Position numbers and translations under genes: made by a program. Below the pieces are notes generated by a model. It was not told the DNA's origin. It searched no databases and saw only the letters and a program-made list of their open reading frames with translations. Below, one piece after another: positions 54,820-64,000 of a DNA stretch of 64,000 nucleotides; position 1 is the stretch's first letter; each line of letters opens with the position of its first letter. The DNA lies in assembly GCA_014859605.1 (NCBI GenBank), contig JACUTW010000003.1:11868-75867 (forward strand), in the 5' to 3' direction. The stretch is from Desulfuromonadales bacterium (lineage in GTDB: Bacteria; Desulfobacterota; Desulfuromonadia; Desulfuromonadales; UBA2197).

Positions 54820-57459
54820 ATGGATCTGATTACGACCCATGTCAATGCGGATTTCGATTGTCTCGGAGCGATGGTCGCAGCGCGCCGCCTTTATCCGCAC
54901 GCCCTACTGGTCTTCCCCGGCGCGCAGGAGAAGGGGGTCGCTGCTTATCTTGCGCAGCACGACGATTGCGCTGCACTCTTCAGCAAGATCCGCGAGGTCG
55001 ATCTGGCGGCCATCGATCGTCTGATCCTCGTTGATGTCAGCCAGCTTGAGCGCATCGGTCCCTTTGCCGAAGTTGCCCGCCGCAACGGGGTGGAGTTGCA
55101 TATTTACGATCATCACCCCGGCAAGGAGAAGGAACTTTGTCCGGCGCTTGCCCGGATTGCTCCGATCGGGGCGACGGTGACGATCTTCTGCGAACTCTTT
55201 CAGGAACAGGGGATCGTCCCGACGCCGGGTGAAGCGACCGCGATGATGCTCGGTCTTTACCAAGATACCGGCAGTCTGCAGTTTACCTCGACCACCGAGC
55301 GCGATTATCTCGCCGCTGCCTTTCTCCTGCGCCACGGTGCCGAGCTCAGCGTCGTTGCTGACAATCTCGTGCAAGAGATGACAGCGGATCAGGTCGAACT
55401 CCTCCATGCCTTGATTCAATCCCGGCAGGTCCTCAACATCAACGGTATTGACGTCAGTATCGCTCATGCCAGTTCGCCGGATTTTGTCGGCGATGTTGCG
55501 ACCCTGGCCCACAAAATCAAGGATATGGAGAGTCTGGACGCGATTATTCTCGTGATCCGGATGGGGGACCGGCTGATCCTCGTCGGGCGCTCGCGGCGCA
55601 GTGAAGTGCCGATGAACGATATCCTCGCCGAGTTCGGTGGTGGCGGTCACCCTCAGGCCGCTTCGGCCACGGTCCGCAACTTCACCTTGATTCAAGTCCT
55701 GGAGATGCTGCCGATGATCTTGACCCGGCACGTCACTCCCCTCTGGCGGGCCGAGGATTTGATGAGCGTCCCGGTCAAAACCGTGCAAAGCGGCACAACG
55801 ATTCAGGCGGCGCGCGATTTTCTCACCCGTTATAACGTCAATGCCGCACCGGTCCTGGCCGGGGCAACAGTCGTCGGCGTCCTCACCCGGCAGACGGTCG
55901 ATAAGGCCGCACAACATGGACTTGCAGGAACCGCCATCGATGAATTCATGAATCGCGATTTTTTTGCAGTGGCGCCGCAAACTCCGGTCGTCGAACTCAA
56001 AGAGTTGATGACCCGCCGTGATCAACGTTTTGTCCCGGTCGTCGATAGCGGGCGACTGGTCGGCGCCCTCACCCGCACCGACCTGTTGCGTCACCTTGTC
56101 TCCGGGCAGCGCGCTTTACCGGTACAGGGAACCACGGTGCATGGCGGCGCTCTCTTCAAACGCCGTCCGATCGAACGCTTGCTGCGCGACCGCCTCCCGC
56201 CGAAAATCATCGAGCTTTTAGAAGCCGTCGCCGCTGTCGCCGATCGTTTGTCGGTGGCGGTCTATCTCGTCGGCGGTTTTGTCCGTGATCTTTTGTTGCG
56301 CAAAAAGAATTTTGATCTCGATCTCGTCGTCGAAGGGGAGGGGATCGTCTTTGCCGAGGCCTTGGCTGCGGCCTTGTCGGGGCGGGTGCGGACCCATGCC
56401 AAGTTCGGCACGGCGGTGGTTATCTGCCCCGACCACTTTAAAATCGATGTCGCATCAGCGCGGATGGAGTACTATCTGCAGCCGGGCGCACTCCCCAGTG
56501 TCGAGGAGGCCTCCCTCAAACTCGATCTTTATCGTCGCGACTTTACCATCAATACCTTGGCCATCGCCCTGAATCAGGGGCGCTTCGGGGAGTTATACGA
56601 CTTCTTTGGCGGACAGCTTGATCTCGAAAACCGGGTGATCCGCATCCTCCATAATCTCAGCTTTATCGAAGACCCGACCCGGGTCTTTCGTGCCATCCGT
56701 TTCGCACAGCGCCTCGGCTTCAATATCGGCCCCCATACCGAATCCCTGCTGCGCAGCGCGGTCCGGCTCGGTTTTGTTGCCAGGATCAGCGACGCGCGGC
56801 TGCGTAACGAGCTTATCGCCATACTGCAGGAAGAAGAACCGCTGCCGATTCTCCGCCAGCTTGCGACTTACGGTCTCCTGCCGCATGTGCAAAAGGATCT
56901 GGTCTTAACCGAAAAGATTGCCAAACTCTTTGTGGCGGCGGAACAAACGCTGAACTGGTTCCAGCTTTTGTATACCGGCGAAGTGGTCGAGCCGTGGCAG
57001 GTTTACTTCCTTTGTTTGACCTCGCATCTTGATGATGCCGCGATGGAGGAGATGACCATGCGGCTGCAGATGCCGGAAAGCCAGCGTCACGACCTTCTGG
57101 CCGGCCGCGCTGCGGCGCATGGACTCTTGACCCGTTTGACCCGCAAGAAGAAGCGCGCCCCTGCGCCGCGCGCCAGCGAAATCTATCACTGGTTCTCGCC
57201 CTGCTCGACGACCGTCCTCCTTTATCTCAGTGCCCGCGCTGACGACGAAATCCGCCGCTGGATCTCGCAGTACCTCATTCATCTGCGCGCGGTTCATCCC
57301 GAACTGACCGGCGACGACCTCCACAAGCTCGGCTTTGCTCCCGGACCGATTTATCGGGAGATTCTTGATGCCCTGCGTTTTGCCCGCCTCGATGCCGTAG
57401 TGGAGAGTCGCAGCGATGAAATATCTTTTGTGAAAAAACGCTTCGCTTCTGTGCTTTAA
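54820..57459 (+). CDS. DHH/DHHA1 + tandem CBS + class-II nucleotidyltransferase (poly(A) polymerase / tRNA CCA-adding family) fusion protein
   Basis: N-terminus HVNADFDCLGA and IYDHH (DHH); GGGH (DHHA1); two CBS motifs. NTase head GGFVRDLLL ... DLDLVVEG ... RRDFTINTLA. Confidence 0.85.
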   Translation: MDLITTHVNADFDCLGAMVAARRLYPHALLVFPGAQEKGVAAYLAQHDDCAALFSKIREVDLAAIDRLILVDVSQLERIGPFAEVARRNGVELHIYDHHPGKEKELCPALARIAPIGATVTIFCELFQEQGIVPTPGEATAMMLGLYQDTGSLQFTSTTERDYLAAAFLLRHGAELSVVADNLVQEMTADQVELLHALIQSRQVLNINGIDVSIAHASSPDFVGDVATLAHKIKDMESLDAIILVIRMGDRLILVGRSRRSEVPMNDILAEFGGGGHPQAASATVRNFTLIQVLEMLPMILTRHVTPLWRAEDLMSVPVKTVQSGTTIQAARDFLTRYNVNAAPVLAGATVVGVLTRQTVDKAAQHGLAGTAIDEFMNRDFFAVAPQTPVVELKELMTRRDQRFVPVVDSGRLVGALTRTDLLRHLVSGQRALPVQGTTVHGGALFKRRPIERLLRDRLPPKIIELLEAVAAVADRLSVAVYLVGGFVRDLLLRKKNFDLDLVVEGEGIVFAEALAAALSGRVRTHAKFGTAVVICPDHFKIDVASARMEYYLQPGALPSVEEASLKLDLYRRDFTINTLAIALNQGRFGELYDFFGGQLDLENRVIRILHNLSFIEDPTRVFRAIRFAQRLGFNIGPHTESLLRSAVRLGFVARISDARLRNELIAILQEEEPLPILRQLATYGLLPHVQKDLVLTEKIAKLFVAAEQTLNWFQLLYTGEVVEPWQVYFLCLTSHLDDAAMEEMTMRLQMPESQRHDLLAGRAAAHGLLTRLTRKKKRAPAPRASEIYHWFSPCSTTVLLYLSARADDEIRRWISQYLIHLRAVHPELTGDDLHKLGFAPGPIYREILDALRFARLDAVVESRSDEISFVKKRFASVL

Positions 57460-57511
57460 TGTTCACCGGAATTGATTTTAAAGATCTATTGCTAAAGGAT
57501 CAAAGGACCCT

Positions 57512-58174
57512 ATGGAAGACTTTTTTGCCAAACTCTCGATCATGCTCGTTCCGGCTCTGCTCGCCATCACCGCCCATGAGGTGGCGCACGGTCTGGTGGC
57601 CGACCACTTTGGCGATCCGACAGCGCGGCTGCTTGGGCGCCTGACGATCAATCCGGTGAAACATCTTGATCTGGTCGGGACGATCACTCTGCTGATCTTC
57701 GGTTTTGGCTGGGCCAAGCCGGTACCGGTGATCTTCAGTAATCTGCGCAACCCCCGCCGCGATATGATTCTGGTGGCGCTCGGCGGTCCAATCGCCAACC
57801 TGATGTTGGCGACACTCTGTGCCCTGGGGCTACATCTCCTCGGCATGCTGTCGCTGCAATCCCGCTCTCTTGAAGCGATTTCGCTGATGCTCGGTTTTGG
57901 CCTCTATATCAACCTCCTCCTCGCCCTCTTTAATCTGCTGCCGATTCCTCCCCTCGATGGCGGCCGGGTTCTGATCGGGATTCTCCCGCCCCGGCAGGCC
58001 TACGTCTTGTCGCGGATTGAACCTTTCGGTTTTTTGCTGGTCATCGTCCTGATCTACTTTACCGGCTTATGGAAAGCGGTGATTGCGCCGATGGTGAATT
58101 TCCTCCTCTTCCTTTTTGCCGGAAAGCAGGTGGTGGTCGTCGAGCAGGCGATGCGCTTTCTCTTTGGCCGTTGA
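57512..58174 (+). CDS. Site-2 protease family (peptidase M50) membrane metalloprotease
   Basis: HEVAHG zinc motif in TM1, and NLLPIPPLDGG. Confidence 0.85.
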   Translation: MEDFFAKLSIMLVPALLAITAHEVAHGLVADHFGDPTARLLGRLTINPVKHLDLVGTITLLIFGFGWAKPVPVIFSNLRNPRRDMILVALGGPIANLMLATLCALGLHLLGMLSLQSRSLEAISLMLGFGLYINLLLALFNLLPIPPLDGGRVLIGILPPRQAYVLSRIEPFGFLLVIVLIYFTGLWKAVIAPMVNFLLFLFAGKQVVVVEQAMRFLFGR

Positions 58175-58214
58175 GTTGGCGGCCGCAAAATTTCTTTGCT
58201 CGCCGCGGTAATTC

Positions 58215-58243
58215 TTGATTGCCGGCGCGGCAACAGGTATAAC
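58215..58243 (+). promoter_or_regulatory. Candidate sigma70 promoter of the ole cluster
   Basis: TTGATT, 17-nt spacer, TATAAC, 33 nt before the oleA ATG. Confidence 0.35.
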
Positions 58244-58275
58244 AGCCGAAACAATTTACCCCCCAATGGTGGTTC

Positions 58276-59319
58276 ATGAGATATTCACGAGTCTATATAG
58301 AATCAGTCGGTTATGAATTGGCGCCGATTGTTGTCACGTCGACGGAGCTGGAACAGCGCCTCAAGCCGATGTATGAAGCGCTGCACATTGCGCCGGGGCA
58401 ACTCGAAACCCTCACCGGCATCCGCGAGCGGCGCTGGTGGAAACCGAATACCCCTGTGTCAATAGGAGCGATCGCCGCTGCCCGTAAAGCCCTGCAAGGG
58501 CGGAATATTACCCCGCAGGATATTGGCGCCGTCGTTTATGCCGGAGTCTGTCGCGAGAATTTCGAACCGGCCACCGCCTGTCCGGTGGCGGCCGCCCTCG
58601 GTGTCCATGGCGGCGCGGCCATCTACGATATCTCCAATGCCTGTCTCGGGATTCTCAACGGCGTCCTGGATATTGCCAACCGCATCGAACTCGGTCAGAT
58701 TCGCGCCGGGCTGGTTGTGGCTTGCGAAAGCTCCCGCGAGATCAACGAAGTCATGATCAAGAAGATGAACGAAAATCCGAGTATGGAGCTCTTTACCACC
58801 TCGCTCGCCACCTTTACCGGCGGTTCCGGGGCAGCGGCGGTCCTTTTGACCGACGGCTCCTTTACCCCGGCCAGGCGCCCCAAGCTCCTTGGCGGCGTCA
58901 ATCTCGCCGAGCCGCAGCACCACAAGCTCTGCCGCTGGGGGATCAAGTCCAACTCCGTCGAGAATCACGTCCCCTACATGCAGACCGATGCAGTGGCGGT
59001 GATGAAGCATGGCGTCGAACTCGGCAAGCGCACCTGGGATGCCCTGTTGAAGGAGCTCGACCTGAGCACCGAGCAGATCGACAAGGTCATCTGTCATCAG
59101 GTCGGTAATGCCCATCAGAAGCTGATTTTGCAGACGATCGGCGTGCCGCTGGAGAAGGACTTCACCACCTACGAATTCCTCGGCAATATGGGGACAGTCT
59201 CCCTGCCGGTGACCGCCGCCCTCGCCAAGGAGCGTGATGTCCTCCTCCCTGGCGATATCGTCGGTTTTCTCGGCATCGGTAGTGGACTTAACTGTTTAAT
59301 GCTGGGGATCCAATGGTAA
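58276..59319 (+). CDS. oleA: OleA-type thiolase (FabH-like condensing enzyme)
   Basis: Thiolase-fold active-site Cys in YDISNACLG; C-terminus GIGSGLN. First gene of the four-gene ole order. Confidence 0.7.
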   Translation: MRYSRVYIESVGYELAPIVVTSTELEQRLKPMYEALHIAPGQLETLTGIRERRWWKPNTPVSIGAIAAARKALQGRNITPQDIGAVVYAGVCRENFEPATACPVAAALGVHGGAAIYDISNACLGILNGVLDIANRIELGQIRAGLVVACESSREINEVMIKKMNENPSMELFTTSLATFTGGSGAAAVLLTDGSFTPARRPKLLGGVNLAEPQHHKLCRWGIKSNSVENHVPYMQTDAVAVMKHGVELGKRTWDALLKELDLSTEQIDKVICHQVGNAHQKLILQTIGVPLEKDFTTYEFLGNMGTVSLPVTAALAKERDVLLPGDIVGFLGIGSGLNCLMLGIQW

Positions 59320-60197
59320 AGAAATCGCTCTATCCCTTTACCGGCCATTTTCACGATCTGAATGGTTTGAAGTACCACTACCTCGATGAAGGTCAGGGCG
59401 AAACCGTGGTCATGGTTCATGGCAACCCGACCTGGTCCTTCTACTACCGCAATCTCGTCCTCGCCCTGCGCGACCAGTATCGGGTGATCGTCCCTGATCA
59501 TATCGGCTGCGGCCTCTCCGATAAACCGGTCGATTCCGGCTATTCCTTCACTCTCAAGCAGCGCGTCGACGATCTCGAAGCCCTCCTCGAAGCTCTTGGC
59601 CTGCGCGAGAAGATCACCCTGGTCGTGCACGACTGGGGGGGGATGATCGGTATGGCTTATGCCTCGCGTCATCCCGAGCGCATTGCCCGGCTGGTGATTC
59701 TCAATACCGGCGCTTTTCTGCTCCCCGCGGCCAAACCGTTTCCCCTCGCCCTGAAGATCTGCCGCGACACCCAGTTCGGCGTCTTCCTCGTGCAGGGTCT
59801 TAATGTCTTTGCCCGCCTGGCTGCCCGCGTCGGCTGCAAACGCCATCCGCTGAGCAAAGAGCTGCGCGACGCTTATTGCAGCCCTTACGACACCTGGCAC
59901 CATCGCATCGCCACCCTCCGATTTGTCCAGGATATCCCCCTTCAGCCGGAAGACCCCGGTTTTGCCTTGATCCAGGAAGTGGCGGACGGCCTCCATCGTT
60001 TTGCGGCGTTGCCGATGCTGATCTGCTGGGGGGAGCGCGACTTTGTCTTTGATCACCACTTCCGCGACGAATGGCAGCGCCGCTTTCCGGCGGCGGAAGT
60101 CCATTCCTACCCCGATTGTGGCCATTACATCCTCGAAGACGCCCAGGAAGAGGTCATCCCGCTGATCAGTGATTTTTTAAGCAGGCATCCGCTGTAA
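59313..60197 (+). CDS. oleB: OleB-type alpha/beta hydrolase (haloalkane-dehalogenase-like, beta-lactone decarboxylase)
   Basis: VMVHGNPTWSFYYR; nucleophile elbow VVHDWGG; C-terminal His in CGHYILED. 7-nt overlap with oleA. Confidence 0.7.
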   Translation: MVKKSLYPFTGHFHDLNGLKYHYLDEGQGETVVMVHGNPTWSFYYRNLVLALRDQYRVIVPDHIGCGLSDKPVDSGYSFTLKQRVDDLEALLEALGLREKITLVVHDWGGMIGMAYASRHPERIARLVILNTGAFLLPAAKPFPLALKICRDTQFGVFLVQGLNVFARLAARVGCKRHPLSKELRDAYCSPYDTWHHRIATLRFVQDIPLQPEDPGFALIQEVADGLHRFAALPMLICWGERDFVFDHHFRDEWQRRFPAAEVHSYPDCGHYILEDAQEEVIPLISDFLSRHPL

Positions 60198-60213
60198 GGG
60201 GAGGTCGCCACTC

Positions 60214-60546
60214 ATGGGTAAACGACTGCCCAAAAACATTCAACAGGCACTGACAGAGACGCAGTCTCGTTTAAGAGATCTCTACGCCCAGCGGCTTAAG
60301 GAGATTATTCTCTTTGGTTCGTATGCTCGGGGCGATTATGCGTCGGGCTCGGATATTGACCTGTTGGTCTTGCTGGATCAGATGAGTGATTCTTGTGCCG
60401 AGCGTGAAGGGTACCTCCCCCTGGTTTGCGAACTTTCACTCAAATACGATACGGTCCTGTCGGTTGTGCCGATGGATTTTGACGTCTGGATGACTCAAAA
60501 GACGCCATTGATCCTGAATGCCAAACGGGAAGGGGTGAGACTGTGA
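60214..60546 (+). CDS. MNT-type nucleotidyltransferase (antitoxin of HEPN/MNT pair)
   Basis: GSYARGDYASGSDIDLLVL (GS-x-RG ... DxD minimal NTase motif). Confidence 0.8.
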   Translation: MGKRLPKNIQQALTETQSRLRDLYAQRLKEIILFGSYARGDYASGSDIDLLVLLDQMSDSCAEREGYLPLVCELSLKYDTVLSVVPMDFDVWMTQKTPLILNAKREGVRL

Positions 60547-60923
60547 CTGATGGTATAAAAGAGTTGCTGGCCAAGGCGGCACAGAGTATCGATGCTGCCG
60601 AACTCTTATTGCGGGACGGGTATGTCGATTTCTCGGCAGGTCGGGCGTATTATGCCATGTTCTATGCCATCGAAGCGGTCTTGCTAAGCCGTGATTTGTC
60701 TTATTCCAAACACTCGGCGGTGATTGCCGCTTTTGGTAAGGAATTCGTTAAGACAGGAGACCTTGATAGTCGTTTCCACCGTTATCTCCTCGATGCTTTT
60801 GATCTGCGCAATGCTGGTGATTATGGCCTGATGAATACCGTAAGTGAGGAGCAGGCGGGGCGAGTCATCGCGGAAGCGCGTGAACTGCTTGTTGCCGTCA
60901 ATATTTTCTTGCTTGGGGTATGA
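60543..60923 (+). CDS. HEPN-domain protein (toxin of HEPN/MNT pair)
   Basis: Helical 126-aa protein with LRNAGDY HEPN-type motif. GTGA overlap with the MNT gene. Confidence 0.75.
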   Translation: MTDGIKELLAKAAQSIDAAELLLRDGYVDFSAGRAYYAMFYAIEAVLLSRDLSYSKHSAVIAAFGKEFVKTGDLDSRFHRYLLDAFDLRNAGDYGLMNTVSEEQAGRVIAEARELLVAVNIFLLGV

Positions 60924-60939
60924 TTTGACTGCGGAACCG

Positions 60940-62598
60940 ATGTCTTTCACCAACATCGCCGCCCATCTGCCGGAGATGGCCCGGCTCCAGCCCGAGACCG
61001 CCGCGATCTATTGCCCGGCTGGCCGCAATTCCGACGGCACTCCCCGCTACACCTGCACCAGCTATTCCCAACTCGATCAGGAAAGTGATCGCATCGCTCA
61101 CGCGCTCGAAGCCCTCGGCATCGTTCGCGGCGTCCGCACGATCCTCATGGTCCCGCCGAGCGCGGAATTCTTTGCCCTGACCTTTGCCCTCTTCAAGGTC
61201 GGAGCGATTCCGATCCTCATCGATCCGGGGATGGGGATCAAGAATCTCAAGGTCTGCATCGCCGAGGCCGAGCCGACTGCCTTTGTCGGCATCCCCAAGG
61301 CGCACCTCGCCCGCGTCCTCCTTGGCTGGGGGAAGCCGACGATCAAGATCCTCCTCACCATCGGCGCGCTCCGCTTTTGGGGCGGGGCGACCCTTTCCTC
61401 TACCCTTGCGACCATACCAACTCCGCGCCCCTATACCATGGCCACTACTGCCGCCGATGAGACCGCGGCGATCCTCTTTACCAGCGGCAGCACCGGCGTC
61501 CCCAAGGGGGCAATCTACAGTCACGGTAACTTCAGCGCCCAGGTTTCAGCGCTGCGCGACCTTTACAATATTCAGCCCGGCGAAATCGATCTGCCGACCT
61601 TCCCCCTCTTTGCCCTCTTTGCCCCCGCTCTGGGGATGACCTCGGTCCTGCCGGAGATGGACTTCACCCGCCCGGCGCTGGTTGATCCGCACAAAATCAT
61701 TACCGCCATCCACTCCTTCCAGATCACCAGCATGTTCGGCTCGCCGGCCCTGATCAATCGCGTCAGCCTTTACGGCCGCGAGCACGGGATCAAGCTGCCG
61801 AGCTTGCAGCGGGTCATCTCCGCCGGCGCGCCGGTGCCGGCGACAGTGCTGGAGCGCTTTGCAACCATGCTCGCCGCCCCGGCGCAGATCTTCACCCCCT
61901 ACGGCGCCACCGAAGCGTTGCCGGTCTGCTCCATCGGTAGTACCGAGATTCTCGGCGAGACCCGCACGCGCACCGAGCAGGGGCGGGGGGTCTGTGTCGG
62001 CCGACCGGTGGCGGGGATTGAGCTGGAGATCATTACCATCAGTGACCAGCCGATCCCTTGCTGGGATGATGCGCTACAGGTGGCCCCCGGTGCCATCGGC
62101 GAGATTGCCGTCAAAGGGGCGCAGGTGACGCGTGGCTACCATAATCGCCCGGCTTCGACGGCCCTCGCCAAGATCGCTGATCCGCAGGGCGGCTTCTGGC
62201 ACCGCATGGGCGATCTCGGTTATCGCGACGCAAGCGGACGGATCTGGTTCTGCGGCCGCAAGTCGCACCGTGTGCAGAGTAGCGCCGGAGACCTCTTCAC
62301 CATCCCCTGCGAAGGGATCTTTAATACCCACCCGGCGGTCTACCGCACCGCCCTGGTCGGCATCGGTCCGGTTGGCAATCAGCGCCCGGTCCTTTGTGTC
62401 GAGCTGGAAAAAGGGGTCGATCCGGCGCAACAGGCTGCGATCCGCGCGGAACTTTGCGTCCTCGGACAACAGCAGAGCCAGACGCAGTCGATCGCAACCA
62501 TCCTCTTTCATCCCGCCTTCCCCGTCGATATTCGTCATAATGCCAAGATCTTTCGTGAGAAGCTGGCGCTGTGGGCCGCGACGCAGGTGACGCCATGA
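60940..62598 (+). CDS. oleC: OleC-type AMP-dependent synthetase (beta-lactone synthetase)
   Basis: ANL motifs ILFTSGSTGVPKG, YGATE, and GDLGYRDASGRIWFCGRK. Start at MSFTN (60940). Confidence 0.7.
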   Translation: MSFTNIAAHLPEMARLQPETAAIYCPAGRNSDGTPRYTCTSYSQLDQESDRIAHALEALGIVRGVRTILMVPPSAEFFALTFALFKVGAIPILIDPGMGIKNLKVCIAEAEPTAFVGIPKAHLARVLLGWGKPTIKILLTIGALRFWGGATLSSTLATIPTPRPYTMATTAADETAAILFTSGSTGVPKGAIYSHGNFSAQVSALRDLYNIQPGEIDLPTFPLFALFAPALGMTSVLPEMDFTRPALVDPHKIITAIHSFQITSMFGSPALINRVSLYGREHGIKLPSLQRVISAGAPVPATVLERFATMLAAPAQIFTPYGATEALPVCSIGSTEILGETRTRTEQGRGVCVGRPVAGIELEIITISDQPIPCWDDALQVAPGAIGEIAVKGAQVTRGYHNRPASTALAKIADPQGGFWHRMGDLGYRDASGRIWFCGRKSHRVQSSAGDLFTIPCEGIFNTHPAVYRTALVGIGPVGNQRPVLCVELEKGVDPAQQAAIRAELCVLGQQQSQTQSIATILFHPAFPVDIRHNAKIFREKLALWAATQVTP

Positions 62599-63581
62599 AG
62601 GCCCTGGTCACCGGCGGTGGCGGATTTCTCGGCAAAGCGATTGTCCGTTTGCTGCTGGCCCGCGGTGATGCCGTCCGCTCCTTTTCGCGCACCCCCCATC
62701 CGGAGCTGGCGACTCTTGGCGTCGAACATTGCTGCGGCGAGCTCCACGACCCGGTGGCGGTCGATGCGGCGGTGGCCGGCTGCGACATCGTTTATCACGT
62801 CGCCGCCAAGGCTGGGATCTGGGGTTCCTTTGCCGACTTTTATCAGGCCAACGTCGTCGGCACGCAAAATGTTATCACTGCCTGCCGTCGCCACGGCGTC
62901 CGTCGCCTCGTCTATACCAGCTCGCCGAGTGTGGTCTTCGACGGCAGCGACATGGAAGGGGTTGATGAGTCGGCCCCGTATCCGCTCCATTTTCATGCTC
63001 CCTATCCGGAGACCAAGGCCGCAGCGGAAATTTTTGTCCGGTGCAGCAACAGTCCAGAGCTGGCGACCGTGGCTCTACGGCCGCATCTGATCTGGGGGCC
63101 GGAGGATAATCACCTGGTGCCGCGCATCCTCGCCCGTGGGCGTCAGGGGGCGCTGCGGCGCATCGGCAGTCGCCCCTGTCTGGTCGATACCATCTATATC
63201 GACAATGCCGCTGCTGCCCATCTCCTTGCTGCCGATGCTCTGACGATCGGTTCACCCGTTGCCGGCAAAGCTTACTTCCTTTCGCAGGGAGAACCGATCC
63301 CCCTTTGGGAGATGGTCAATCGTATCCTCGCTGCCGGTGGTCTGCCGCCGGTGACCCGCACCATCTCCCCGCGCCTTGCCTACGCCATCGGCTGGACGCT
63401 GGAGAAGAGTTACGCGGCGCTGCGGATCAAAAGCGAGCCGCGCATGACCCGTTTTGTCGCCCGCGAACTCTCGACCGCGCACTGGTTCGATATCAGCGCT
63501 GCGCGTCGGGATTTCGGTTACCAGCCGACGGTCTCCATCGATGAAGGGATGGAGAGACTGCAAGCGTGGCTGACGCGATGA
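62595..63581 (+). CDS. oleD: OleD-type NAD(P)H-dependent reductase (3-beta-HSD / SDR family)
   Basis: VTGGGGFLG Rossmann motif; YPETK (YxxxK). ATGA overlap with oleC. Confidence 0.7.
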   Translation: MKALVTGGGGFLGKAIVRLLLARGDAVRSFSRTPHPELATLGVEHCCGELHDPVAVDAAVAGCDIVYHVAAKAGIWGSFADFYQANVVGTQNVITACRRHGVRRLVYTSSPSVVFDGSDMEGVDESAPYPLHFHAPYPETKAAAEIFVRCSNSPELATVALRPHLIWGPEDNHLVPRILARGRQGALRRIGSRPCLVDTIYIDNAAAAHLLAADALTIGSPVAGKAYFLSQGEPIPLWEMVNRILAAGGLPPVTRTISPRLAYAIGWTLEKSYAALRIKSEPRMTRFVARELSTAHWFDISAARRDFGYQPTVSIDEGMERLQAWLTR

Positions 63582-64000
63582 CCCTTTGGCCTGCGCCGCC
63601 CATTACGCGCTCTTTGCCGCCGGGGGAGGTTCACCTTTGGCGCATCCCCCTCACGACTTTACCTGAAGAAATTTCCCGCCTCCACACTTGTCTTGCCGCC
63701 GACGAATTGCAACGCGCTGGCCGCCTCCTTGATCGCCGCAAAGCACAGGATTTCATCGTCGGCCGCGGCCGTCTGCGCCAGATTCTCGCTTCTTATCTGC
63801 ATGTGAATCCGGCAGCCATAGCCTTGACCTGCGGCAAGTACGGCAAGCCAGCGCTGACTGGCAATGCTCTGCAATTCAACCTGTCCCACTCCGGCGCCTG
63901 GGCACTCCTTGCGCTTGGTGCCGATGCGGCCATCGGCGTCGATGTGGAAAAGATTGAGCCGGCTCTCGATTATTCGGCCCTGGCGGTCCGGTTCTTTACC
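63578..64000 (+). CDS. Sfp-type 4'-phosphopantetheinyl transferase, 3' end outside the window
   Basis: Own translation of an open frame with no stop to nt 64000: MTLWPAPP ... QFNLSHSG ... IGVDVEKI (FNxSHS and GxD PPTase motifs). ATGA overlap with oleD. Confidence 0.65.
   Translation, partial: MTLWPAPPITRSLPPGEVHLWRIPLTTLPEEISRLHTCLAADELQRAGRLLDRRKAQDFIVGRGRLRQILASYLHVNPAAIALTCGKYGKPALTGNALQFNLSHSGAWALLALGADAAIGVDVEKIEPALDYSALAVRFFT

Follow-up and report, generated by a model that had tools for sequence, protein, structure and literature searches.

A predicted Class II HEPN/MNT gene pair, probably a mobile cassette, between oleB and oleC in a narrow lineage of Desulfuromonadales

The window analysed here is a stretch of 64,000 nt from a Desulfuromonadales bacterium (assembly GCA_014859605.1, contig JACUTW010000003.1, positions 11,868 to 75,867), in which the oleABCD operon for olefin synthesis carries, between oleB and oleC, two small genes encoding a minimal nucleotidyltransferase (MNT) and a HEPN-domain protein. 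We judge it probable that this pair is a mobile Class II HEPN/MNT cassette that was inserted once at the oleB–oleC junction and has been kept there as an addiction module of the selfish or defence type that contributes no enzyme activity to olefin synthesis. Under this reading, the cassette (MNT followed by HEPN, with a 4-nt overlap) would have entered a normally overlapping junction a single time, in an ancestor common to a narrow group of Desulfuromonadales, and would have stayed intact since. Apparently devoid of a promoter or terminator of its own, it would be transcribed within the ole mRNA, and translation of OleC would probably follow directly on that of HEPN. Homology suggests that MNT most likely binds and neutralises HEPN, perhaps with the help of nucleotidylation at the conserved Tyr94, on the model of the type VII toxin-antitoxin (TA) system HepT/MntA. 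If active, HEPN is predicted, again by homology, to use an alternative His57/Arg89 site instead of the canonical Rx4-6H motif.

The insert and its distribution among ole loci

A scan of one genome per species gave 80 loci with an OleC relative; with the addition of L001 and L002, 70 loci showing both oleB and oleC were available for comparison. The pair is present in only three of these 70 (L001, L002, and L003), which belong to one narrow clade. Elsewhere, by measurement on open reading frames (ORFs), oleB and oleC most often overlap by 4 nt (modal gap -4 nt), and most gaps lie between -22 and +30 nt. L001 is identical to the window, and L002 is 97.7% identical over 927 nt; in L003, a Desulfuromonadales metagenome-assembled genome (MAG; JAXMLA01), identity to the window is 89% for OleC, 97% for MNT, and 95% for HEPN. 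The next relatives, with OleC proteins about 70% identical, have an empty oleB–oleC junction. An earlier reading of the window from its letters (the sequence-only reading) had taken the pair to be inserted into the operon, and the comparison of relatives agrees that the insertion is derived and lineage-specific, with the pair in 3/70 loci and a 4-nt overlap in most relatives. Outside one clade the junction lacks the pair, which is neither fixed among relatives nor native in composition. Parsimony favours one gain, in the ancestor from which the window, L002, and L003 descend.

In the window, the stop codon of oleB (60197) and the ATG of oleC (60940) are 742 nt apart on the same strand, with a 16-nt spacer on either side of the pair, and the MNT and HEPN ORFs overlap by 4 nt (GTGA). 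These coordinates confirm the sequence-only description of two overlapping ORFs, of 110 aa and 126 aa, between oleB and oleC, and profile searches uphold its domain assignments (PF01909 at 5.9e-12; PF05168 at 1.2e-17). The oleABCD order is complete and co-oriented (thiolase, alpha/beta hydrolase, AMP ligase, and short-chain dehydrogenase/reductase (SDR), by Pfam and NCBIfam), and ole synteny with oleA first is found in about 57–74 related loci. OleC matches NF045786 (olefin beta-lactone synthetase) over its full length at 698.9 bits, below the cut-off of 900, and OleD matches NF042423 over its full length at 433.6 bits, below the cut-off of 580; both cut-offs were trained on Xanthomonas and Shewanella. 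The ATG at 60940 gives OleC an N-terminus equal in length to that of its relative in L005. The features of the locus are as follows.

58276..59319, + strand: oleA, thiolase-type condensing enzyme, first gene of the host operon (NCBIfam PRK09258, 474.7 bits, cut-off 285; Pfam ACP_syn_III_C and Thiolase_N)
59313..60197, + strand: oleB, alpha/beta hydrolase, intact, directly 5' of the insert (Pfam Abhydrolase_1, 2.7e-34; aligns over its full length with the OleB of relatives)
60198..60213, + strand: upstream spacer, 16 nt, GGGGAGGTCGCCACTC, with a Shine-Dalgarno-like GGAGG 9 nt 5' of the MNT ATG
60208..60935, + strand: block homologous to cassette copies outside ole loci, approximately the inserted DNA (blastn against L088, L090, and L091)
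60214..60546, + strand: MNT, minimal nucleotidyltransferase, 110 aa, ATG start (PF01909, 5.9e-12; PF18765, 1.5e-8; PADLOC PDC-S09, 8.2e-30; PDB 9xbd chain E, 1.9e-12)
60543..60923, + strand: HEPN, 126 aa, GTG start, predicted UPF0332/AF0298-like (Class II) protein (PF05168, 1.2e-17; PDB 9xbd_A, 2.5e-24; 2hsb, 3.7e-7)
60924..60939, + strand: downstream spacer, 16 nt, TTTGACTGCGGAACCG, with an in-frame TTG at 60925-60927, 1 nt past the HEPN stop, as a potential OleC start
60940..62598, + strand: oleC, olefin beta-lactone synthetase-like AMP ligase, intact, directly 3' of the insert (NCBIfam PRK09274, 778.5 bits, cut-off 478)
62571..63581, + strand: oleD, 2-alkyl-3-oxoalkanoate reductase-like SDR, overlapping the end of oleC (NF042423, 433.6 bits; Pfam 3Beta_HSD, 4.3e-53)

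The closest relatives of the cassette beyond this clade lie outside ole loci. By blastn, L091 is 85.9% identical to the window cassette over 60208-60935, L088 86.3%, and L090 87.2%, with homology ending a few nt beyond the ORFs. Because homology to these copies runs only over about 60208-60935, the inserted DNA appears to be essentially the two ORFs with a few flanking bases. The copies in L088, L090, and L091 (86–87% at the nucleotide level) are flanked by an mnmA-like gene and a MiaB-like radical-SAM gene, and those in L087 and L089 (77–80%) occupy two further contexts. The copy of Geomobilimonas luticola (L083, 69%) adjoins BrnT/BrnA and Gp49/HTH pairs, and this species' own oleB–oleC junction (L030) is empty; the copy in L085 (66%) adjoins an HTH gene and a MeaB-like gene. 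That cassette copies of 66–87% identity sit in such unrelated contexts argues for a lineage-specific insertion at oleB–oleC. None of 80 metagenome loci that hold HEPN relatives contains ole genes, and MNT lies directly upstream of HEPN in 72 of the 73 that have enough upstream sequence, usually with the same 4-nt overlap. The general traits of TA modules (small, adjacent, co-oriented genes with a patchy distribution and varied contexts) are thus found in this family, the contexts differing among L083, L085, L087, L088–L091, and two loci described further below (L112 and L118). HEPN relatives were sought on viral contigs, and none was found.

Divergence, selection, and composition

L003 aligns colinearly with the window over 9 kb, with 89.3% nucleotide identity (about 11% divergence), and the junction spacers of the two differ at 1 of 16 positions upstream and 0 of 16 downstream. 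Because both have the same junctions, the insertion would predate the split of the two genomes, which lies well beyond strain level. The ratio of nonsynonymous to synonymous divergence (dN/dS) against L003 is 0.05 for MNT and 0.14 for HEPN, compared with 0.03–0.17 for the ole genes (0.06 for oleB). These values indicate that MNT and HEPN, both intact, are under purifying selection, and that the same is true of oleB, oleC, and oleD. The sequence-only reading had called the insertion recent: this holds in the sense that the pair is lineage-specific, but the arrangement is already common to genomes about 11% diverged over 9 kb, with matching junctions and with purifying selection on both genes.

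Nowhere in the 9-kb alignment of the window with L003 are 700 nt better conserved than in the cassette, where 300-nt windows are 94–96% identical vs. 83–93% elsewhere. Synonymous divergence (dS) is 0.15–0.24 in the cassette and 0.39–0.56 in the ole genes. Between window positions 60214-60923 and L003:5272-5981, third codon positions differ at 27 of 238 sites (11%), as against 618 of 2593 (24%) in the flanking genes (Fisher p 3.5e-6), and no block of 235 codons in the flanks falls below 19% third-position difference; comparisons with L002 show the same tendency towards a less diverged cassette. The sequence that borders the cassette shows no less divergence than the rest of the alignment, with 6 differences in 46 nt at the end of oleB and in the spacer (60168-60213) and 27 differences in the 159 nt directly after the cassette. 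A comparable bias is seen between two copies outside ole loci: in L088 vs. L090, third-position divergence is 21% for HEPN and 36% for the MiaB-like neighbour (p 0.007). Because the bias recurs in this second pair, we lean towards either an intrinsic difference in rate or constraint, or recurrent exchange of the cassette, as the cause of its low divergence. A recent import by homologous recombination was considered as a simple cause and rejected, since divergence just beyond the cassette is no lower than elsewhere and the bias is repeated in L088/L090. In the copies of L090 (41-420) and L091 (1422-1801), a 1-nt deletion produces a frameshift in HEPN (called as 88 aa) with MNT intact, which may represent decay of the HEPN partner.

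In base composition, the pair has a G+C content (GC) of 50.4%, compared with about 59% for oleA and oleB (58.6% for oleB) and about 64% for oleC and oleD (63.8% for oleC). The sequence-only reading had proposed a foreign composition from two hand-counted samples of 100 nt; the counts are exact (0.47 and 0.71) and the contrast is real, but the samples are unrepresentative extremes, and the contrast amounts to about 8–13 GC points and not 24. In the sliding-window comparison that it had suggested, the pair is low yet only at the 7th percentile of 710-nt windows (window mean 56.1%, standard deviation 4.0). The contrast is sharper in third-position GC (GC3), which is 0.57 for MNT and 0.51 for HEPN vs. 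0.71–0.79 for the ole genes; the HEPN value is the lowest among the approximately 59 ORF-called genes of the window (mean 0.639, standard deviation 0.059). Relatives of the cassette have about 49–51% GC irrespective of the GC of their hosts (51–61%). Low GC is a trait of the cassette clade and provides no clock for the insertion: composition cannot date the event, because about 50% GC is typical of this clade across hosts of 51–61% GC.

Class of the pair and its embedding in the operon

By its motifs and profile matches, the pair belongs to the Class II (UPF0332-type) HEPN/MNT modules and not to type VII HepT/MntA. MNT has the motif GSX10DXD (G35-S36 and D47-I-D49, nt 60316-60360), which is the GSYARGD...DIDLLVL string that the sequence-only reading had picked out. 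HEPN matches PF05168 at 64.6 bits (cut-off 22) over residues 6-120, covering 114 of the 117 profile positions; this is its sole Pfam family at E <= 0.01, with no match to PF01934. Its motif reads R89-N-A-G-D-Y94 and has no His at +5 or +6, i.e., no Rx4-6H. In the window, His57 is encoded at 60711-60713, Arg89 at 60807-60809, and Tyr94 at 60822-60824; among 120 family representatives (one for each cluster at 50% identity), H57 is conserved in 97%, R89 in 97%, and Y94 in 94%, with R34, Y36, and Y37 conserved as well. Close HEPN homologues are named 'UPF0332 family' by JGI.

These are the traits of Class II modules, namely a PF05168 HEPN and a PF01909 MNT with GSX10DXD, no RX4HXY, and a conserved Tyr (PMC7641770). 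They are also those of AF0298-like HEPN-T proteins (UPF0332; PMC3710099; PDB 2hsb), in which the motif Arg is kept, the His that would complete Rx4-6H is absent, and a second conserved His, here H57, is N-terminal. The window pair shares with both groups the same pair of Pfam families and the combination of Arg, Tyr, and N-terminal His; it shows no structural difference from Class II and would be an ordinary member, with a host from the Desulfuromonadales. The AF0298-like pattern has been described, and an arrangement of the His57/Arg type has been proposed as an alternative HEPN active site (PMC3710099). Class II modules have been reported to outnumber Class I in archaea and to be widespread in hyperthermophilic bacteria and archaea (PMC7641770).

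The pair resembles type VII HepT/MntA (Class I) in that MNT is 5' of HEPN, in the GSX10DXD motif, and in a Tyr near the motif Arg that could accept AMP. It differs in that its HEPN belongs to PF05168 and not to PF01934 or PF08780, lacks RX4HXY, and is paired with an MNT that reaches 32 bits against the NCBIfam MntA equivalog NF047752 (cut-off 60), with residues 28-63 as the only matching segment. AMPylation of the Tyr of RX4HXY by MntA, the type VII mechanism, has been demonstrated only in Class I systems (PMC7641770). The sequence-only description of the pair as 'type VII-like' is therefore only an analogy, and the label is corrected here to Class II (UPF0332 type). PADLOC assigns MNT to PDC-S09, a candidate family for phage defence (8.2e-30).

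For both proteins, the closest relatives of solved structure are in PDB 9xbd, a complex of a HEPN protein with a nucleotidyltransferase (HEPN 2.5e-24, MNT 1.9e-12). The DLRNxxDY motif and the His of SxHSAVI are shared, and residues 5-114 of HEPN and 21-109 of MNT can be aligned; in PDB 9xbc, a Phe stands at the position aligned to Tyr94. Because 9xbd is a complex and 9xbc has Phe at the Tyr94 position, we infer that the two window proteins bind each other and that Tyr94 is functionally important. The two entries are also the sole, indirect hints that HEPN may inhibit growth and that MNT may counter it by (poly)AMPylation of the motif Tyr. With these PDB matches and those to Pfam, the fold of the proteins is beyond doubt.

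Scans of 57400-64000 returned 3 promoter-like sites (1.7 expected from shuffled sequence) and 10 terminator-like sites (6.7 expected), none of them at either junction, and a separate scan of the 150 nt 5' of MNT found no promoter. The 16-nt spacers are too short for a promoter or terminator. Since the spacers are this short and no promoter or terminator is visible, the pair is most probably co-transcribed with the ole genes. At the position of the oleC ATG, L003 reads ACG (region L003:5983-6003, equivalent to window 60925-60942), and between the HEPN stop and the conserved OleC N-terminus its one remaining start codon is the TTG that corresponds to 60925-60927, 1 nt past that stop. The TGATTTG tail that contains this TTG is common to the copies outside ole loci in L088, L090, and L091. 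These features suggest that, in L003 at least, initiation of OleC needs sequence that came with the cassette and probably also translation of HEPN.

A search of 57000-64000 against Rfam (E <= 0.1) gave one sub-threshold match and nothing else: group II intron D1-D4-2 at 58763-58888 on the - strand, antisense in oleA (28.3 bits vs. a gathering threshold of 36, E 0.009), which is probably due to chance.

Weighing of the readings and other nested modules

Several points weigh against a mobile addiction module inserted once. Between the window and L003, dS in the cassette reaches only about half the value of its flanks, which a single insertion followed by a strictly vertical, neutral history would not predict. 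No insertion mechanism is visible, as there are no bracketing repeats and no recombinase: the search for flanking short direct repeats that the sequence-only reading had proposed (59700-61400, seed 7) found no direct or inverted repeats bracketing 60198-60939 and returned only short matches at chance level, and no transposon, insertion sequence (IS), or integron vehicle was recognised at the insert, whose two neighbours are both ole genes. The literature found does not establish Class II HEPN proteins as toxins or RNases; Yao 2020 noted that the class then had no biochemistry and that its TA status needed validation (PMC7641770). A literature search by code for the publication behind PDB 9xbd/9xbc gave irrelevant matches only. 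Finally, the evidence for co-transcription and translational coupling is that of geometry, which would also make plausible the stabilisation of the locus and the coupling of ole expression to TA regulation that the sequence-only reading had raised.

Among the other readings, the pair might be a split two-subunit nucleotidyltransferase, with MNT as the catalytic and HEPN as the substrate-binding subunit, as in kanamycin nucleotidyltransferase; it would act on a small molecule or another macromolecule and serve a mobile resistance or stress function, not a TA function. PF05168 is in the KNTase_C clan, MNT has weak matches to ANT(4'), ANT(9), and ANT(3'') (E 1e-5 to 1e-3) and to 4ebj (2e-4), Class II has no RNase motif, and this option was explicitly left open by Makarova 2009 (PMC2701414). 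We nevertheless regard it as unlikely, given that every ANT match is far below cut-off and confined to the N-terminal nucleotidyltransferase core, that the near-invariance of His57, Arg89, and Tyr94 is the pattern of the proposed alternative HEPN active site, that the Tyr-to-Phe change in 9xbc can be read as a test of whether this Tyr is an acceptor or catalytic residue, and that HEPN is frameshifted in L090/L091 with MNT intact. The low cassette divergence might instead mean that the cassette entered the junction after the window/L003 split and then spread between lineages, or that it is repeatedly homogenised by exchange, so that the arrangement would be younger than its flanks suggest. The deficit of third-position differences relative to every flank block of the same size, the status of the cassette as the best-conserved 700 nt of the 9 kb, and the same tendency in L002 favour such a history. 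To this, too, we assign a low probability: the cassette-adjacent sequence is as diverged as the rest, and no imported tract with flanks is visible; the conservation of both junction spacers fits one event; and the L088 vs. L090 bias points to an intrinsic property of the cassette.

Domestication of the pair, which would now regulate olefin synthesis by controlling the output of OleC and OleD, e.g., through translational coupling or cleavage of ole mRNA, would be in keeping with the tight promoterless embedding of the two genes, with the purifying selection on both genes, and with the change of the oleC ATG to ACG in L003, where the only remaining start is the TTG in cassette-derived sequence. 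We consider domestication very unlikely, however, as the pair is missing from all but 3 of the 70 loci that have oleB and oleC, and the same cassette family occurs in nuo-like, type I restriction-modification, tRNA-modification, and TA-island contexts; purifying selection is expected for any addictive module, and unrelated selfish genes (YefM/YoeB, TumE, and DUF559) at other ole junctions suggest opportunistic nesting. Hardly credible is an arrangement ancestral to the ole operon of the order and lost in other lineages: nothing speaks for it beyond the pair being common to three closely related sequences, and it would need many independent, precise deletions in dozens of lineages, every one of which left behind a 4-nt overlap or a short gap, whereas the nearest cassette relatives are outside ole loci and the GC3 of the cassette is far below that of the ole genes. 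A single, lineage-specific insertion of a mobile Class II cassette is therefore preferred.

Nesting of MNT–HEPN modules in biosynthetic operons has been known since 2009, and the ole case is one more instance. In Thermus thermophilus HB8, such a module lies in the lysine biosynthesis operon and is absent in HB27, which was read as recent mobility (Makarova, Wolf and Koonin 2009, PMC2701414); in Deinococcus radiodurans, DR0679-DR0680 is an MNT–HEPN module within a gene cluster and is absent from a relative (PMC2701414). Like these, the window pair is a two-gene MNT and HEPN module inside a biosynthetic cluster of one lineage, absent from the syntenic locus of relatives. It differs in its host, an oleABCD operon of Desulfuromonadales, in occupying a junction that is normally a 4-nt overlap, in having no upstream region of its own, and in being common to genomes about 11% diverged.

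Other small modules were seen at ole junctions. Geomesophilobacter sediminis Red875 (L032:4475-4977, NZ_JAEMHM010000013) has a Phd/YefM gene (PF02604, 1e-17) and a YoeB gene (PF06769, 3.4e-9) between oleA and oleB on the ole strand; this inter-gene region has 49.5% GC vs. 62.3% for the locus, and it would represent an independent TA insertion. A MAG (JAJYBH010000109, L057:2785-5989) has a 3.2-kb insert between oleB and oleC with PilZ, Beta_elim_lyase (threonine-aldolase-like), and DUF4124 genes, in which a TumE toxin gene (PF20126, 2.2e-15) and an HVO_A0114/MarR-like partner lie directly before oleC. In Desulfuromonadaceae bacterium GWB2_53_15 (L065:5462-5875), a gene for a 137-aa DUF559 endonuclease-like protein (3.2e-33) lies between oleB and oleC, in a gap of 46% GC vs. 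63% for the locus. These modules resemble the window pair as small, AT-richer, same-strand genes in ole junctions of single lineages, but they belong to unrelated families, would stem from independent events, and have spacers of 55–90 nt vs. 16 nt here. Expansions of at least 300 nt occur at low frequency at all three ole junctions, as estimated from gaps between projected gene ends, which are approximate.

Relatives of the cassette also occur at other tight positions. Three were picked, together with L124, by an ORF-based survey of embedding that is noisy (spurious ORFs arise in GC-rich DNA) and served only this selection, followed by Pfam checks, and so yields no frequencies. One (L112:941-1647) has a Proton_antipo_M (nuoL/nuoM-like) gene on each side, at distances of 6 and 1 nt; another (L115:1442-1822) follows a YhcG PDDEXK nuclease gene and precedes a nuoM-like gene; the third (L118:3505-4217) lies between hsdM and hsdS of a type I restriction-modification system, next to a Class I MntA/HepT pair. 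Their HEPN proteins are 51–59% identical to that of the window. Class II cassettes could be conceived more broadly as promoterless operon-nesting elements that settle in tight host junctions, live off host transcription, and become wired into host translation. The examples would be oleB–oleC, the nuoL–nuoM-like junction of L112, and hsdM–hsdS of L118, and the loss of the oleC ATG in L003 would fit, although we consider this generalisation quite unlikely. If it were true, removal of the cassette would cost OleC and OleD expression, giving addiction at the level of the operon and not of the replicon, and the repeated settling of three unrelated TA types in ole loci would belong to one phenomenon with the unusually low dS of the cassette.

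Together with its empty-site relatives, the locus constitutes a natural experiment in which a putatively selfish pair is tolerated in an operon at a normally translationally coupled junction, and it could help to show whether Class II HEPN proteins are toxins. For engineering of the ole pathway from Geobacter-type bacteria, the pair is cargo to be removed or accounted for.

Just 5' of an M50 peptidase gene and the ole operon, the window also encodes, at 54820-57459, an 879-aa fusion protein that combines DHH/DHHA1 and two CBS domains with a poly(A) polymerase/CCA-adding head that includes an RNA-binding region; this DHH/CBS/CCA-type fusion is conserved in L003.

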